This document shows positions 1 through 43,629 of a stretch of DNA of 64,000 nt, in pieces. The stretch comes from Escherichia phage vB_EcoM_SA35RD. A model generated the notes under the pieces. The model was not told where the DNA came from. It searched no databases and saw only the letters and a list, made by a program, of their open reading frames with translations. Made by a program: the position numbers and the translations under genes. Positions within the stretch are counted from its first letter, which is position 1, and every line of letters begins with the position of its first letter. The DNA is taken from the sequence record OL960577.1; one strand, 5' to 3'.

Positions 1-126
1 GCTTACAAGTTTCTTACGGTCTTTATCGGACAAATCATGAAATGAATGGGCCTTTTTATTTATAGCGGCTTCTAATTTACCTGCACTCACTCGAGCTTCA
101 GTAATAAATTCTTGATATGTTTTCAT
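1..126 (-). CDS. ipIII: internal protein, IPIII-like, N-terminal 42 codons only (3' end off-window)
   Basis: Minus-strand ATG at 126..124; translation MKTYQEFITEARVSAGKLEAAINKKAHSFHDLSDKDRKKLVS resembles T4 IPIII N-terminus as I recall it, with the capsid-targeting sequence MKTYQEFI.E. Confidence 0.6.
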   Translation of the reverse strand, partial: MKTYQEFITEARVSAGKLEAAINKKAHSFHDLSDKDRKKLVS

Positions 127-8668: not shown

Positions 8669-8917
8669 TTATTTGTACGAATTAATAATCTCTTCCATTT
8701 TATCCAGAACATGGATATCGATTATACGAGGAAGTGCCGAAAGATTAGAACCGTCGAAAGATTTAAGGTCTTCCAAAATAATATTTTCAATGGCCTTTAA
8801 AGCTTCCGCAGATTCTGATGCAGAATTAAATTCAGGAATTTCTCCAAAAAGACGTAAGAATGAACCAAAGTATTCTGCGGCGATTTCTTTAGCTTGTTCG
8901 ATATCAGACTTAAACAT
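8669..8917 (-). CDS. hypothetical small acidic protein
   Basis: Start at ATG 8917 (MFKSDIEQ), chosen because the promoter -10 at 8946..8951 lies inside the longer ORF. Confidence 0.5.
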   Translation of the reverse strand: MFKSDIEQAKEIAAEYFGSFLRLFGEIPEFNSASESAEALKAIENIILEDLKSFDGSNLSALPRIIDIHVLDKMEEIINSYK

Positions 8918-8945
8918 TTTGTTTTCCTCATTTGTTGGTGGAGTA

Positions 8946-8975
8946 ATCATATCACCATCCTTGGCGTTTGTACAT
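8946..8975 (-). promoter_or_regulatory. early promoter candidate (weaker match)
   Basis: -35 ATGTAC, 18 bp, -10 TATGAT. Confidence 0.35.
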
Positions 8976-9413: not shown

Positions 9414-9443
9414 TTTGTTTACTCCTCTGTAGTTGATAAGTCT

Positions 9444-9473
9444 ATAGTATCACCATCCTTGGTGCTTGTACAT
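9444..9473 (-). promoter_or_regulatory. early promoter cassette, part of the 47-bp module shared with 45531..45577
   Basis: -35 ATGTAC, 18 bp, -10 TACTAT; block 9407..9453 is identical to 45531..45577. Confidence 0.5.
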
Positions 9474-9480
9474 CATTATT

Positions 9481-9786
9481 TTATTTTTTCCAACTCAACA
9501 ACTTGTAATGTCCTTCATTCGTACGTGGTTTATCCCAAGAAATACTAATATATGATTCGCTGTCAATAGAAGTCGCCGGGTTTTTCTCTACCGTAAGACC
9601 TTCACTTTCCAGCCATTCAATAGTATTTGCGCATAAATCGGAAGAACACCTCATCGGGAACCGGCAAGATTTTTCACCTTTAGATGCTGCATCGTACATC
9701 TTTTCCAAAATACGCTTTTGCACGTTTTTAAAAATAGTTTCAGCAGATTCTTCAGATTTTTTATTCAGTTCAGTGTAAAGACTCAT
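9481..9786 (-). CDS. hypothetical small protein
   Basis: 101 aa; promoter at 9815..9843; several Cys residues. Confidence 0.55.
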   Translation of the reverse strand: MSLYTELNKKSEESAETIFKNVQKRILEKMYDAASKGEKSCRFPMRCSSDLCANTIEWLESEGLTVEKNPATSIDSESYISISWDKPRTNEGHYKLLSWKK

Positions 9787-9814
9787 AACATTTTCCTCTA
9801 TGGTTGATAAGTCT

Positions 9815-9843
9815 ATAGTATCATGTCCTTAGAAGAAGTAAAC
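9815..9843 (-). promoter_or_regulatory. early promoter cassette
   Basis: -35 GTTTAC, 17 bp, -10 TACTAT; downstream TAGACTTATCAAC core shared with 9444 and 45568. Confidence 0.5.
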
Positions 9844-9876
9844 ATCTTTATGAAATATTTTTATGCCCTAGATACC

Positions 9877-9903
9877 AAAAGGCCCCAACCATAAGGAAGG
9901 GGC
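9877..9903 (-). terminator. rho-independent terminator
   Basis: GGCCCC/GGGGC stem followed by TTTT on the minus strand, after the 9910..10374 gene. Confidence 0.55.
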
Positions 9904-9909
9904 ATTCTA

Positions 9910-10374
9910 TTATTTAATTTGTTTAGCAGACCAGATACGGTCTTTAATAAGTTTTTGGATATCTTCAACATACTCAAGGCTATGAGCGTGAGGATTATCT
10001 TTGAAGCTATGTGCTCGTGCCAGTTTCTGGCCTTCTGTTTTGATTACTAAAAGCTCTTTAAGAATTGCTTCATACTTAGAAATAATTCCTTTGGCGATAT
10101 TTTTTTCTTGAGCTGCTTTAGGGTCTGTTTTTGGCGCAGGTGCTTTACCTGTAGCTTTCTGGAACAATTCACCTGATGCAGCTAGGCTTTTAAAAACTCG
10201 GCTAACAGTATTAGCATTAGTAAAACCTTCGGCTTTAAAATCTCTAATAAAACGGAAACGTTCTTCATCAGAGGCGTCTTTGTAAGAATATTTACCTGCT
10301 TGAATTGCTGCAATCGCAGCGGCTTTTACATCTGAACTAGATTGTTCAGTCAAAAATTCAGCGTATGATTTCAT
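9910..10374 (-). CDS. internal-protein-like (CTS-bearing) basic protein, 154 aa
   Basis: Starts MKSYAEFLTE (CTS-like); Lys/Ala-rich; flanked by rho-independent terminators at 9877..9903 and 10419..10447. Confidence 0.6.
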   Translation of the reverse strand: MKSYAEFLTEQSSSDVKAAAIAAIQAGKYSYKDASDEERFRFIRDFKAEGFTNANTVSRVFKSLAASGELFQKATGKAPAPKTDPKAAQEKNIAKGIISKYEAILKELLVIKTEGQKLARAHSFKDNPHAHSLEYVEDIQKLIKDRIWSAKQIK

Positions 10375-10418
10375 GTTGCTTTTCCTAAGTTAATTAACTT
10401 ATCTATTTATTATTATGC

Positions 10419-10447
10419 CAAAAAGCCCCGACCTTTCGGAAGGGGCT
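10419..10447 (-). terminator. rho-independent terminator closing the tRNA/structured-RNA transcription unit
   Basis: AGCCCC-loop-GGGGCT hairpin followed by TTTTT on the minus strand. Confidence 0.6.
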
Positions 10448-10454
10448 AAGCCTT

Positions 10455-10750
10455 GCGGCAACCTTGTCGGGGTTTCCACCTACTAAGGCAAGTGTTTGTA
10501 CGAAACGCCGGGATTCGAACCCGGTTATCAAGTAGTTGACGCTACTCAATATTTTTAAAAGGCCATATCTCGACCATATCCGAACGTTCCGTCAAAAACG
10601 CTACTCGGCTTACGGCAAAGATATTTCCTCGAATCGATAATTCGGTGCGCCGTTTCTGCTGTGATGTAAGGGGATATTAACAAATCGTAAAGATTTATTA
10701 AGACCAGTCCTTACTCAGGGAACATCAGTCCGACGACTTACCGGTAGCGA
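10455..10750 (-). ncRNA. candidate small stable RNA region (T4 rnaC/rnaD-like position), tRNA-like T-arm at 10508..10524
   Basis: About 300 bp without a credible ORF between the 10760 gene and the terminator at 10419..10447; contains CCGGG-TTCGAAT-CCCGG plus a 7-bp acceptor-like strand, but I could not complete a cloverleaf. Confidence 0.3.
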
Positions 10751-10759
10751 CCCGGCTTC

Positions 10760-11104
10760 TTATTTTGGCATATCATCAATTTGCTCTCGACGCCGACGCC
10801 ATAGATTAATCGCTTCATTAACACATTCGGCGTTTGGTATATGACGGCAATAATATAATGATTCGCGTTTCTGGAACCGATGTTGCAATGGAATTTCGTT
10901 TAAAAGGTCTTTACGGTCAAAGTATTCAAAACTAGTTAACCCAGAACGATTTTTAATGAACTTCCAATGTCCAAATTCATTTTGAACATAGATGTAATCG
11001 GCATGCTGATACAGCAAATTAATCAATCGATGAGAAATAACTGTATCATATTCGTTAAAATAAAACGTTAAATCATGAACTACCAGATAAATATTGCCTT
11101 TCAT
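10760..11104 (-). CDS. hypothetical protein between the tRNAs and the structured-RNA region
   Basis: Start at ATG 11104 (MKGNIYLVVHDL) with SD GAGGAAAA; the longer 11152 start would overlap tRNA-Arg. Confidence 0.45.
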   Translation of the reverse strand: MKGNIYLVVHDLTFYFNEYDTVISHRLINLLYQHADYIYVQNEFGHWKFIKNRSGLTSFEYFDRKDLLNEIPLQHRFQKRESLYYCRHIPNAECVNEAINLWRRRREQIDDMPK

Positions 11105-11122: not shown

Positions 11123-11199
<77 letters not shown>

Positions 11200-11205
11200 A
11201 ATATA

Positions 11206-11279
11206 TGACCCAGACCAGATTCGAACTGGTAACCTTTCCCTTATGAGGGGACTGCTGCTAACCATTGAGCTACAGGGCC
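11206..11279 (-). tRNA. tRNA with anticodon CAU (Ile2 or Met type), no encoded CCA
   Basis: Manual fold: acceptor GGCCCTG/CTGGGTC (one U-U mismatch), anticodon loop CTCATAA, T-arm ACCAG-TTCGAAT-CTGGT; D-stem only 3 bp, so slightly irregular. Confidence 0.6.
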
Positions 11280-11878: not shown

Positions 11879-12169
11879 TCACCTTACCATATTAATGTAA
11901 TTATATTCAATGCAACGCAATTTCAAAGGATTCTTGAAAATATCATATTCAAGAGGGCCTTTTTCTGTTTCAATAAAGAAATCAAAGTTAACTGTGTTAA
12001 ATTTATCATCTTCACATAGTAATTTAACCTGTGAAGATGAACGGTCGATATAAACCTTTTCAACCTCAAAGTTAGTCAGAATACCGTAGTCATCGACTAG
12101 TGCTTTAGCTGCACGTTGATCGCTTTCATATCCATTCTCAATGGACGATACTTTAGCATAAAGAATCAT
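11879..12169 (-). CDS. hypothetical protein, 96 aa
   Basis: ORF tightly packed with neighbours. Confidence 0.55.
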   Translation of the reverse strand: MILYAKVSSIENGYESDQRAAKALVDDYGILTNFEVEKVYIDRSSSQVKLLCEDDKFNTVNFDFFIETEKGPLEYDIFKNPLKLRCIEYNYINMVR

Positions 12170-12528
12170 GAATGTTCCACCACTTCAAAAGTATGTGCAC
12201 TGACAATCTGGTACCAGTCAAAATTTTCTTCAGCATTTTTGTAGATTTCACGAAGAGCTTCAACAGTTTTTCCTGTAGCAACAAGGTCGTCAATACCACC
12301 AAGAGGATAACAGTCATAACCAGCAAACAGAAGGAAATTAATAGTTTCTGTAGGTTCTTGATGCAGTGTACCATTGTCATCGACTACTTCAAAGAACATA
12401 TAACCAGGCGATTTAGATTTAATCCAAGCCCATGCTTGAGCTGCTGAATCAAATGGTTTGCGTATCAAACGACAATCAGGATCTTTAGAAGGATTTGCTT
12501 CAAAATCCGCATATACGTGATATTTCAT
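12166..12528 (-). CDS. hypothetical protein, 120 aa
   Basis: Start at ATG 12528 (MKYHVYADFE), abutting the upstream stop. Confidence 0.5.
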   Translation of the reverse strand: MKYHVYADFEANPSKDPDCRLIRKPFDSAAQAWAWIKSKSPGYMFFEVVDDNGTLHQEPTETINFLLFAGYDCYPLGGIDDLVATGKTVEALREIYKNAEENFDWYQIVSAHTFEVVEHS

Positions 12529-12529
12529 T

Positions 12530-12736
12530 TTACTCACCTTTTGCAATTTTATCCATAACAATAGCGATTAAACCGATTAGAAATGCTACTACCAATGAGA
12601 TAGAATTTTCGGTTGTTGTCAGTAGTCCGCAAATGAATCCTACAAACATCGAAAAACTAAAAGCCATTGAAGCAATTACTACAGCAACATTACGAATCAG
12701 TTCAGCGCGTTTCATTTTATTTCTCCATTTACTCAT
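12530..12736 (-). CDS. small membrane protein, 68 aa
   Basis: Basic N-terminus then VAVVIASMAFSFSMFVGFICGLL and LVVAFLIGLIAIVM helices; promoter at 12754..12783. Confidence 0.55.
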   Translation of the reverse strand: MSKWRNKMKRAELIRNVAVVIASMAFSFSMFVGFICGLLTTTENSISLVVAFLIGLIAIVMDKIAKGE

Positions 12737-12786: not shown

Positions 12787-13074
12787 TTACAGAAGAGTTT
12801 TTGCAATAATTTTAAGCTGAGCTACAGAAATGTGCTTAGTTTTAAACAGTGCAGTCTCTTCAGCCGGAGAGATAACAATAGTAGCGCCATCTTTCTTAGC
12901 AGACCATCCATCCCCTAAGTAAACAGTACCTTTTACTTCTTCGCCGTCAACCAGACTAATCATTGGTTTACCCTCACGTCCTTTATTTGCTTTAATAACT
13001 TCGGAAGTAAGGGTTGCTTCGGTTAGAGTAGAAACGTTAGCATCAGGTGATATAAATTCTTTATAGGTTTTCAT
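12787..13074 (-). CDS. ipI: internal protein I-like (CTS-bearing), 95 aa
   Basis: Starts MKTYKEFIS; sits immediately downstream of 57B as ipI does in T4; promoter at 13109..13138. Confidence 0.6.
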   Translation of the reverse strand: MKTYKEFISPDANVSTLTEATLTSEVIKANKGREGKPMISLVDGEEVKGTVYLGDGWSAKKDGATIVISPAEETALFKTKHISVAQLKIIAKTLL

Positions 13075-33246: not shown

Positions 33247-34011
33247 ATGGCAACTTATGATAAAAATCTTTTCGCCAAGCTAGAAAATCGTGGCGGGTAT
33301 TCTCAGACAAATGAAACCGAAATCCTCAATCCATTTGTCAATTTTAATAATTATGAGAATAGTCAGACCTTAGCCGATGTTCTAGTGGCAGAAAGCATAC
33401 AGATGCGCGGTATTGAATGTTTTTATGTTCCACGTGAATATGTTGCAGTGGACCTTATCTTTGGTGAGGACCTTAAAAATAAATTTACTAAAGCATGGAA
33501 ATTTGCTGCATATCTGAACTCTTTTGAAGGTTATGAAGGAGCGAAATCGTTCTTCAGCAACTTCGGAATGCAAGTTCAAGACGAAGTTACATTATCTATT
33601 AACCCAGGTCTTTTCAAACACCAGGTCAACAATCAGGAGCCTAAGGAAGGTGATTTAATATACTTCCCAATGGACAACAGTTTGTTTGAGATTAACTGGG
33701 TTGAACCATATGACCCATTCTATCAAGTAGGTAAAAATGCTATTCGTAAAATTACTGCAGGCAAGTTTATTTACTCTGGCGAAGAAATCAATCCGGTGCT
33801 TCAGAAAAATGAAGGTATCAATATACCTGAATTTAGTGACTTGGAACTTAACCCTGTTAGAAATCTTGACGGTATCCATGACATTAATATCGATGAATAT
33901 TCTGAAGTTGAGCAAATCAATTCAGAGGCAAGTGAATACGTTGAGCCGTATGTAGTAGTTAACAACCGTGGTAGACAAAATTCACCATTTGACGATGGGT
34001 TTATGAATTAA
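33247..34011 (+). CDS. 14: neck protein gp14
   Basis: 254 aa; position and length as T4 gp14. Confidence 0.85.
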
Positions 34012-41717: not shown

Positions 41718-42142
41718 TGTATCTTATCCCTGAATCTTATGAATTGGTACTCGAAAATGTCGAAGCACTTATTCCTGAAGCACAGGGCCGAATCGATGCA
41801 TTGTCTTCTGCTCTCGATATTGACGATATAAATACTATTATCGAGAACATGCTTGAAACTGAAACGGATTTAGCTGTTGCAATGGCTTCCATTATTAATG
41901 AAGAACAGTTAAATGAGTTTATCGTTAAACATGTTTCTTCTCGTGGTGAAGTCACCCGCACTAAAGACCGTAAAACTCGTGAACGTAACGCGTTCCAAAC
42001 CACCGGTCTTTCTAAAGCAAAACGTAGACAAATCGCTCGTAAGGTCGTTAAAGCTAAAAAAGCTAACCCTTCAGGCCAAGTTAAAGGCTTGCGTAAGCGT
42101 AAAAAGGCTCTTAAACGTCGTAAAGCATTAGGATTAAGCTAA
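41717..42142 (+). CDS. 68: prohead core protein gp68
   Basis: 141 aa; basic C-terminus; position as in T4. Confidence 0.8.
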
Positions 42143-42783
42143 TGAATAAACCCGAGTTACTTATTGAAACTTGGGGTCAACCCGGTGAGATTATTGATGG
42201 CGTTCCAATGTTGGAATCTCATGATGGAAAAGATTCTGGCTTAAAACCAGGGCTTTATATAGAAGGTATTTTTCTTCAGGCAGAGGTTGTTAACCGAAAT
42301 AAACGTTTATATCCTAAACGCGTTTTGGAAAAAGCAGTAAGTGACTATATTAAAGAACAAGTCGCAACCAAACAAGCCCTTGGAGAATTAAACCATCCAC
42401 CTCGTGCAAATGTTGACCCTATGCAAGCCGCTATCATTATTGAAGATATGTGGTGGAAAGGAAACGATGTATATGGACGTGCTAGAATTATTGAAGGCGA
42501 CCATGGTCCCGGCGATAAATTAGCTGCTAATATACGAGCTGGTTGGATTCCAGGTGTTTCCTCTCGTGGTCTTGGTTCTTTAACCGACACCAATAAAGGG
42601 TACCGTATCGTGAACGAAGGATTTAAATTAACCGTCGGCGTAGATGCCGTATGGGGACCTTCTGCTCCAGATGCTTGGGTTACTCCTAAACAAATATCAG
42701 AATCAGAAAATTCGGTGGAAACCACCAAAAACAGTGCTGATGAAGCATTTAAAGCTCTCGCAGAGAGTTTAAAAGCATTATAA
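42142..42783 (+). CDS. 21: prohead core protease gp21
   Basis: 213 aa; position and length as T4 gp21. Confidence 0.9.
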   Translation: MNKPELLIETWGQPGEIIDGVPMLESHDGKDSGLKPGLYIEGIFLQAEVVNRNKRLYPKRVLEKAVSDYIKEQVATKQALGELNHPPRANVDPMQAAIIIEDMWWKGNDVYGRARIIEGDHGPGDKLAANIRAGWIPGVSSRGLGSLTDTNKGYRIVNEGFKLTVGVDAVWGPSAPDAWVTPKQISESENSVETTKNSADEAFKALAESLKAL

Positions 42784-42816: not shown

Positions 42817-43629
42817 ATGATCAAAGAACAACTTTTGAAAGAAGCTCAGAACATCGAGACTTCAGTTGCTCTTAATAGTGTTTTCGAATCAGTAGAACTG
42901 TCTCCGGACGTTAAAGCTAATTTCAGCACTGTATTCGAAGCCACCGTTAAGCAGGAAGCAGTCAAACTGGCTGAATCTCATATCAAAGCCATCGCCGAAA
43001 AGGCCGAAGAAGAAGTTGAAAAGGCTAAAGAAGATGCTGAAGAGAAAGCTGATAAAAAATTGGCTGAACAAGCTTCTAAATTCCTAGACCATCTTGCAAA
43101 AGAATGGCTCGCAGAAAACCAAATCGCAGTTGATAAAGGCATTAAAGCTGATTTGTTCGAATCCATGCTTGGTGGTCTGAAAGAACTGTTTGTTGAACAT
43201 AACGTTGTTGTTCCAGAAGAATCTGTAGATGTTGTAGCAGAAATGGAAGAAGAGCTGGCCGAACATAAAGAAGAAACCGCTCGTTTGTTCGAAGAAGTTA
43301 CCAAACGTGATGCATATATCAATTACGTTCAGCGTGAAACCGCTATTAATGAAAGCGTAAAAGACCTGACTGAATCTCAGAAAGAAAAAGTTATTGGCCT
43401 GGTTGAAGGTATGGATTATTCTGACGCATTTGGTACTAAGTTAACTGCTATTGTAGAAATGGTTAAAGGTTCTACTAAAGAAGAAGCCGCTATTACCGAA
43501 AGTATAAATACAGTTGACAATGACGCTGCCGGTCTTAATTTTGTTGCCGAAGCAGTTGACACTACCACAACTCAGGTAGAACAGAATTCTAATGTAAGTT
43601 TATATGCGAAAGTCGCATCTCGTTTCTAA
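42817..43629 (+). CDS. 22: prohead core scaffold protein gp22
   Basis: 270 aa, acidic coiled coil; late promoter at 42779. Confidence 0.9.
   Translation: MIKEQLLKEAQNIETSVALNSVFESVELSPDVKANFSTVFEATVKQEAVKLAESHIKAIAEKAEEEVEKAKEDAEEKADKKLAEQASKFLDHLAKEWLAENQIAVDKGIKADLFESMLGGLKELFVEHNVVVPEESVDVVAEMEEELAEHKEETARLFEEVTKRDAYINYVQRETAINESVKDLTESQKEKVIGLVEGMDYSDAFGTKLTAIVEMVKGSTKEEAAITESINTVDNDAAGLNFVAEAVDTTTTQVEQNSNVSLYAKVASRF
43503..43510 (+). promoter_or_regulatory. possible late promoter for gene 23, inside the gene 22 coding sequence
   Basis: Exact TATAAATA 137 nt upstream of the gene 23 ATG; no closer match found. Confidence 0.35.

Follow-up and report, generated by a model that had tools for sequence, protein, structure and literature searches.

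The DNA analyzed here, referred to as the window, is a stretch of 64,000 nucleotides from Escherichia phage vB_EcoM_SA35RD (sequence record OL960577.1), and all positions are those of this stretch. An open reading frame encoding 154 amino acids was found at 9910..10374 on the minus strand. It starts with ATG, is preceded by an AGGA Shine-Dalgarno sequence ~10 nt upstream, and its product begins with MKSYAEFLTE. A first-pass annotation had described this ORF without giving its strand, and its existence is confirmed. The segment from 9700 to 10600 is 99.6% identical to the corresponding DNA of Escherichia phages APCEc01, JK36, and moha, and 98% identical to that of ATK47. The window phage is a member of Mosigvirus, the RB69-like genus in which ATK47 is classified.

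The order of genes on the minus strand is 57A, 57B, ipI (12787-13074), ORFs resembling tRNA.4, tRNA.3, and tRNA.2, tRNA-Met (11206-11279), and tRNA-Arg (11123-11199). It continues with an ORF resembling RB69ORF150c, rnaD, rnaC, a hairpin, the 154-aa ORF, a second hairpin, a 101-aa ORF, small ORFs, and e.6. The genes for rnaC (10497..10635, minus strand; the stable "species 1" RNA) and rnaD (~10642-10760, minus strand) were placed by homology, each being ~95% identical to its T4 counterpart; rnaC is annotated in phage ATK47. A scan against Rfam, which holds no family for rnaC or rnaD, found the two tRNAs only. The tRNA genes at 11123-11279 on the minus strand are just those for Arg-UCU and Met-CAU, compared with eight in T4, and yet rnaD and rnaC have remained ~95% identical to those of T4. 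The mechanically called ORFs at 10403-10549 and 10555-10683 sit inside the rnaC and rnaD RNAs and are spurious.

The 154-aa ORF is flanked by two hairpin terminators. The upstream hairpin, which with its U-run occupies 10415..10446 on the minus strand, ends the tRNA-rnaD-rnaC unit and reads GCCCCUUCC-GAAA-GGUCGGGGC followed by CUUUUUGG. The downstream hairpin (9872..9903, minus strand) lies 6 nt past the stop codon and reads GCCCCUUCC-UUAU-GGUUGGGGC followed by CUUUUGG; it has just 4 U and escaped a simple terminator scan. The folding energies alone are unexceptional against shuffled sequences, with z = -1.6 for the upstream and -0.85 for the downstream hairpin. The case for these hairpins is thus made by their repetition, position, and conservation and not by folding energy. 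The motif GCCCC-N2-CC-N4-GG-N2-GGGGC occurs exactly twice in the 64 kb, where 0.02 occurrences are expected, and the two hairpins with their U-tracts constitute the first (upstream) and second (downstream) copies of a 32-nt direct repeat with 81% identity, 543 bp apart. The first-pass annotation had proposed that two terminators bracket the gene as an autonomous cassette. Both hairpins are real, and relatives either have the gene as a whole block or lack it; the upstream hairpin, however, is shared with the tRNA-rnaD-rnaC unit, which it also terminates.

Next to the downstream hairpin, a promoter of the T4 early type (GTTTAC-N17-TACTAT) and the leader of the following gene, the 101-aa ORF at 9481-9786, were read from the sequence at 9794..9860 on the minus strand. 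The downstream hairpin and this promoter together form a terminator/early-promoter junction of the PeSL (promoter-early stem-loop) kind, a concept developed for T4-like phages (Comeau, Arbiol and Krisch 2014, PMC4122927; Arbiol 2010). As with PeSL elements, the borders of the 154-aa gene are repeated terminator hairpins next to promoters that bound a variable gene and coincide with indel breakpoints between close relatives. Unlike PeSL elements, the upstream junction combines a hairpin with a late-type box and has no early promoter; only the downstream junction pairs a hairpin with an early promoter. Another repeated junction of the PeSL kind is provided by a 30-nt direct repeat (93% identity) at 9423-9452 and 9794-9823, which covers the promoter -10 element, the leader, and the Shine-Dalgarno sequence before the 54-aa and 101-aa ORFs.

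Orthologues of the 154-aa protein, which we call type A, were found in 510 phage records; they are 154-157 aa long and 73-100% identical, and in every record inspected the annotation is "hypothetical". The pairwise dN/dS between the 154-aa ORF and its RB68 orthologue was determined to be 0.07, which shows that the protein is under purifying selection. In T4, the space between e.8 and rnaC measures 285 bp and contains no annotated gene, and the slot is likewise without a gene in T2 and PST. The first-pass annotation was therefore correct in stating that T4 has no internal-protein gene at this place. The empty site of T4, T2, and PST keeps one hairpin, and in T4 and PST this hairpin runs into the flank GGTATCTA(A/G)GCCTTTCCAG... 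The same flank is found in RB68 after the second hairpin, downstream of the gene, and in the window the sequence that follows the downstream hairpin is the one that follows the single hairpin of T4 and PST (GGTATCTAGGCC...). The difference between presence and absence of the gene is thus one repeat unit plus the gene, which is the signature expected from recombination between repeated hairpins. We infer from these genome comparisons that recombination at the hairpin repeats probably moves the gene in and out of the slot.

The variability of the slot among T-even genomes, raised as a question in the first-pass annotation, is extensive: it holds zero, one, or two genes, and some of the copies are frameshifted. 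In RB69 the slot is occupied only by a second type of gene, type B (RB69ORF149c/148c), which begins with MKTYAEFLTE. RB69ORF149c and ORF148c (NC_004928, record positions 73428-73990) are the halves of one CTS-bearing gene that is interrupted by a frameshift in the reference genome, where CTS denotes a capsid targeting sequence. No mention of RB69ORF149c was found in the literature. Intact type B genes, encoding 187 aa, are present in 165 phage records. In ECML-134 and several other phages types A and B are arranged in tandem, each with its own hairpin, so that ECML-134 has three hairpins around two cassettes. Frameshifts of the gene are found in RB69 and in several other records. The 154-aa gene is dispensable, and its state differs from one close relative to the next.

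Type B resembles type A in its slot, its leader, and its layout, which consists of a promoter-like box, a Shine-Dalgarno sequence, a CTS-bearing ORF, and a hairpin. The N-terminal domains differ, with a ..MYxxDTSS.. motif in type B and GKYSYKD..RFxF in type A. A BLASTP comparison of the two types matched the leader only, and a profile-profile comparison detected homology over the full length (99.2% probability, E = 1.5e-19). As judged from these profiles, types A and B are two diverged types of one superfamily. Distant homologues are encoded directly after the tRNA/rnaC terminator in JS98 (orf135, MKTYNEFLNESVLNE...), Marfa (gp137, MLKFKDILTES...), and Mineola (gp134, MKFKEFLAEASS...), and metagenomic homologues begin with MLKFNEFLAE... 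and MISFNEFVDGNLITE... The N- and C-terminal domains are differently combined across the members of the superfamily. Homology to IpIV of PST, whose 157 aa equal the length of the Tequatrovirus orthologues, was considered and ruled out because the leader alone matches. Homology to T4 IPIII was also ruled out (hhalign probability 1.2%). The products of the other internal-protein (Ip) genes of the window likewise have no similarity to the 154-aa protein outside the leader.

A metagenomic protein of 94 aa (P0009) is a chimera in which the N-terminal part resembles the tRNA.3-like ORF at 12166-12561 on the minus strand (..LLFAG..YYP.GG..) and the last 31 residues are those of the type A C-terminus (compare 9910-10005, minus strand); this suggests a deletion that joined two genes across the tRNA region. 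In a protein of 182 aa (P0013), the type A N-terminal domain is fused to an unrelated C-terminus ending in ..AVLDKMEELINAYK, which resembles the end of the 93-aa ORF at 8669-8950 on the minus strand (..HVLDKMEEIINSYK) and represents further domain shuffling in this region.

Directly after the upstream hairpin, at 10404..10411 on the minus strand and 30 nt before the ATG, is the box AATAAATA, which differs by one mismatch (A for T at position 1) from the T4 late promoter TATAAATA. The canonical TATAAATA is found at the equivalent place in RB68, the type A gene of ECML-134, JS98, and Mineola, AATAAATA precedes type B, and Marfa has CATAAATA. Altogether, an xATAAATA box comes straight after the upstream hairpin in 7/7 homologous genes examined, and the leader of the JS98 gene (TATAAATAGATAAGTTAATTAAC..AGGAAA) is nearly identical to that in the window. 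A scan for sigma-70 promoters found no early promoter before the 154-aa ORF. Early-type promoters serve ipI and the ip gene that encodes 104 aa in the window, which, like the mismatch in the box, counts against late expression of an internal protein here; unlike these two, the 154-aa gene is insulated by the upstream terminator and carries only the late-type box. From this arrangement of the sequence, late transcription of the gene from AATAAATA is plausible. The same box was also found 25-45 nt upstream of the lysozyme gene e (2067, minus strand) and of two other ORF starts (34010, plus strand; 50460, minus strand). At 34010 the match extends to TAATAAATAGATAAG, the same sequence as that upstream of the 154-aa ORF.

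The first ten codons of the ORF (10345..10374, minus strand) encode a putative CTS with an L-T-E cleavage motif for the prohead protease gp21. Capsid targeting sequences direct proteins to the prohead core, and mutagenesis of the leader of T4 IPIII has demonstrated that targeting depends mainly on residues 4 and 7 and processing on residues 8 and 10, with L/I-X-E as the protease motif (PMC9026906). The leader of the 154-aa protein has Tyr4, Phe7, Leu8, and Glu10 and so agrees with the T4 CTS at all four of these critical positions, which upholds the CTS-like character noted in the first-pass annotation. Tyr4 and Phe7 are shared with the T4 leader MKTYQEFIAE, and Leu8-Thr9-Glu10 fits the L/I-X-E motif. 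The 64-kb window has 588 ORFs that start with Met and encode 40 aa or more. Five of these have the CTS-like N-terminal pattern, compared with none in 100 shuffles; the four besides the 154-aa ORF are ipI or members of the internal-protein region on the denV/e side.

The head genes within the window are those for the gp20 portal, gp67, gp68, gp21, gp22, and gp23. The prohead protease gp21, the enzyme expected to cut the leader, is encoded at 42142..42783 on the plus strand (Pfam Peptidase_S77, E = 2.8e-107), and gp22, the scaffolding core protein and major component of the prohead core, at 42817..43629 on the plus strand (Pfam T4_CASP, E = 1.5e-89). The residues FLTE of the leader are identical to P4-P1 of the site GSFLTE|AEIGG in the major capsid protein gp23 of this phage, a site that is homologous to the Glu65|Ala66 cleavage site of T4 gp23. 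The P1' residue at the leader site is Gln (L-T-E|Q), which counts against cleavage, as the sites seen in this phage have Ala or Ser at this position.

Several observations concern the other CTS-bearing genes of the window. The ipI homologue at 12787-13074 on the minus strand starts with MKTYKEFISPDANVSTLTE|ATLTSEV. Here ISP takes the place of IAE at residues 8-10, which is the first cleavage motif in T4 IPI, and the second site, LTE|A at residues 17-19, is retained. Further CTS-bearing ORFs are located at the left end of the window (1-126, 152-466, and 1269-1550, all on the minus strand), and the window edge truncates one of the three. Another, which encodes 104 aa, belongs to phrog_3966, a family of unknown function, and may thus be another under-annotated Ip.

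The AlphaFold2 model of the 154-aa protein is of moderate confidence (mean pLDDT 73, from a shallow alignment). The leader (residues 1-10) is disordered, three helices make up the N-terminal domain (13-67), and a Lys/Pro/Ala linker (72-84) leads on to a long helical hairpin (85-151). Searches of Pfam and NCBIfam with the protein returned no significant family. It matches PHROG 2280 (phrog_2280), whose category is "unknown function", and one further, weak PHROG match is confined to the leader and is to an internal virion protein family. A Foldseek search of the PDB with the model returned nothing below E = 0.6; ferritin-like helical bundles appeared as candidate fold matches, and at a TM of ~0.2 they are meaningless. 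Against BFVD, Foldseek matched only uncharacterized members of the family and Serratia phage PS2. No sequence or fold similarity to known defence inhibitors or DNA-binding proteins was found with Pfam, NCBIfam, hhalign, or Foldseek.

Evidence from virions is available for an orthologue. Protein g140 of Yersinia phage fD1 (phiD1), which is 76% identical to the 154-aa protein, was among the proteins called particle-associated when purified virions were analyzed by LC-MS/MS, in a dataset of low specificity that lists many non-structural proteins. Of the 277 phage gene products, 113 to 137 received this label, among them denV, lysozyme, NudE, and thymidine kinase, as did 672 host proteins. Because of this low specificity, the detection of g140 is weak evidence of true packaging. 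Also on the list are g129 and g146 ("Head protein"), which we take to be the internal proteins of fD1, and the degraded core protein gp67 (g174) is not listed. The fPS phage paper contains no proteome.

If the protein were an unpackaged, cytoplasmic accessory protein, the CTS likeness would be a functionless result of shared ancestry of the 5' ends of genes, through recombination at ip-type leaders. Leaders could travel along by cassette recombination, all of the annotations inspected read "hypothetical protein", and the fD1 proteome is unspecific. However, leaders of the same kind (MLKFNEFLAE, MISFNEFV..LITE, MKFKEFLAE, and MKTYNEFLNE) are found in homologues as low as 32-47% identical. The retention of the critical positions in such diverged bodies, and in type B, argues for a function of the leader, which would otherwise be expected to decay. 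A late-promoter-like box is in keeping with a component of the prohead, and the absence of the CTS pattern from all 100 shuffles also speaks against a chance likeness. We consider an unpackaged protein improbable, and packaging of the 154-aa protein in the phage head to be quite likely.

A packaged protein could also be a transient accessory of the prohead-core scaffold, like gp67 and gp68, that is targeted to the core, degraded, and expelled at maturation instead of being injected. The predicted all-helical structure with long coiled helices is of the type seen in scaffold proteins, and motifs that resemble L/I-X-E occur internally, for instance LKE (105-107) and LEY (133-135). Against such a role, the leader is of the IP type and not of the gp67/gp68 type, the gene varies between phages and can be missing, in contrast to core assembly factors, and LC-MS/MS of mature fD1 virions detected the orthologue and not gp67. 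This explanation has very little probability in our judgment.

The reading that we prefer, with a probability of roughly 0.7 and in line with the injected head protein suggested in the first-pass annotation, is that the ORF represents a previously unnamed family of T-even internal proteins that are made late, cleaved after Glu10, injected, and probably counter a host defence. The gene would be transcribed late from AATAAATA after the tRNA/rnaC terminator, and the transcript would be ended by the gene's own hairpin. The leader MKSYAEFLTE would guide the protein to the scaffolding core as the prohead assembles, where the gp21 protease would cut after Glu10 (L-T-E|Q). The predicted mature form comprises residues 11-154 (144 residues, ~16 kDa, pI 9.6). 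This basic, all-helical product would remain with the packaged DNA and enter the cell with it at infection, and there it may neutralize a "first-response" host defence, by analogy with Ip1, Ip2, and Ip3 of T4. Recombination between the direct repeats of the hairpin would give rise to the zero, one, or two cassettes of related phages. Use of the late promoter, cleavage, injection, and an anti-defence role are what we infer for the 154-aa gene and its product.

T4 IPI, IPII, and IPIII (Ip1-3) and Ip4-Ip10 of other T-even phages have a 10-residue CTS of the MKTYQEFIAE type with an L/I-X-E motif, as does the 154-aa protein. In common with them, the gene is small, non-essential, and variable in its presence between relatives, and it lies in a hyperplastic region near tRNA genes. 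A possible further parallel is the listing of an orthologue (fD1 g140) among proteins of virion preparations in the unspecific dataset. The 154-aa gene differs from the T-even Ip genes in its slot, which extends from rnaC to e.8 and is separate from the classical ip loci between 57B and tRNA.4 and on the denV/e side. The product differs in its predicted two-domain, all-helical architecture and has no sequence similarity beyond the leader to IPIII, IpIV of PST, or the Ips of the window.

The composition of the protein bears on what it does after packaging. The first-pass annotation described it as Lys/Ala-rich and basic, which is accurate (21 Lys and 23 Ala among 154 residues, pI 9.5), and from this composition it suggested nucleic-acid binding. 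The main rival to the preferred reading is accordingly a packaged protein whose principal role is physical, namely the neutralization or organization of the condensed genome in the head or at ejection. The pI of 9.5-9.6, the lysines, and the Lys/Pro/Ala linker allow this role and do not show it; solid-state NMR of T4 has demonstrated contacts between DNA phosphates and the lysines of its internal proteins (PMC3012670). Against this role stands the dispensability of the gene, which T4, T2, and PST lack and which carries frameshifts in RB69 and in several further records. Types A and B coexist or replace each other, as arms-race genes more typically do, and neither Pfam nor Foldseek against the PDB revealed a DNA-binding fold. 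In addition, IPIII of T4, which is itself basic, proved to be a specific inhibitor of GmrSD. We judge a structural, DNA-neutralizing main role to be unlikely.

For the preferred reading of an injected protein directed against host defence, the precedent is provided by T4. Ip1, Ip2, and Ip3 are injected, and each inhibits a distinct GmrSD type IV restriction enzyme (PMC12373910); the site of action of IPIII, which works without its leader, is the cytoplasm of the host (PMC9391042). The presence or absence of the gene, the tandem paralogues, the domain shuffling, and the occasional frameshifts fit an accessory gene shaped by an arms race. On this analogy, we place the anti-defence role at about even odds. 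No similarity of the 154-aa protein to IPI* (Pfam IPI_T4) or IPIII was found with Pfam, with hhalign against IPIII, or with Foldseek against the PDB and BFVD. Because Ip1, Ip2, and Ip3 are mutually unrelated, this lack of similarity leaves room for GmrSD inhibition. That GmrSD specifically might be the target is, by the same analogy, doubtful.

The T-even internal proteins, their leader, and their hypervariability were known already. What appears to be new is that the type A family and its type B sister are probable internal proteins that had gone unrecognized as such. Also new are the clean, repeat-bounded structure of the cassette and, as the genomes suggest, a separate Ip slot at the rnaC-e.8 junction whose position is conserved across at least five genera. 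That the family is still "hypothetical" despite its occurrence in more than 500 phages is likely due to its absence from T4, T2, and PST and to the frameshift in the type B copy of RB69. In a broader and more tentative interpretation, which we regard as possible, the Tevenvirinae would have, in the rnaC-e.8 junction, a third and hitherto unrecognized locus for internal proteins. Housed there would be a modular superfamily of injected proteins, with exchangeable N- and C-terminal helical domains and types A and B, that keeps its position in Tequatrovirus, Mosigvirus, and on to Dhakavirus, Jiaodavirus, and Marfavirus and disarms defences other than the targets of Ip1-3. If this is true, possible targets are restriction systems that recognize arabinosyl-hmC as well as glucosyl-hmC DNA, or "first-response" systems that are not restriction systems.

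Since the T4 Ips are all injected inhibitors of type IV restriction, each new CTS-bearing family is a candidate anti-defence protein and a possible determinant of host range for therapeutic T4-like phages. The cassette also illustrates cleanly how, in nature, genes can be gained and lost when repeated terminators recombine, and the slot could accept engineered cargo genes that carry a packaging leader. In JS98 an unrelated ORF without a CTS, orf136 (184 aa; 1520-2074 of the JS98 stretch), which apparently encodes a membrane protein, is situated between rnaC and the CTS-bearing orf135. It has its own hairpin-bounded cassette, and thus the slot also takes cargo other than internal proteins.
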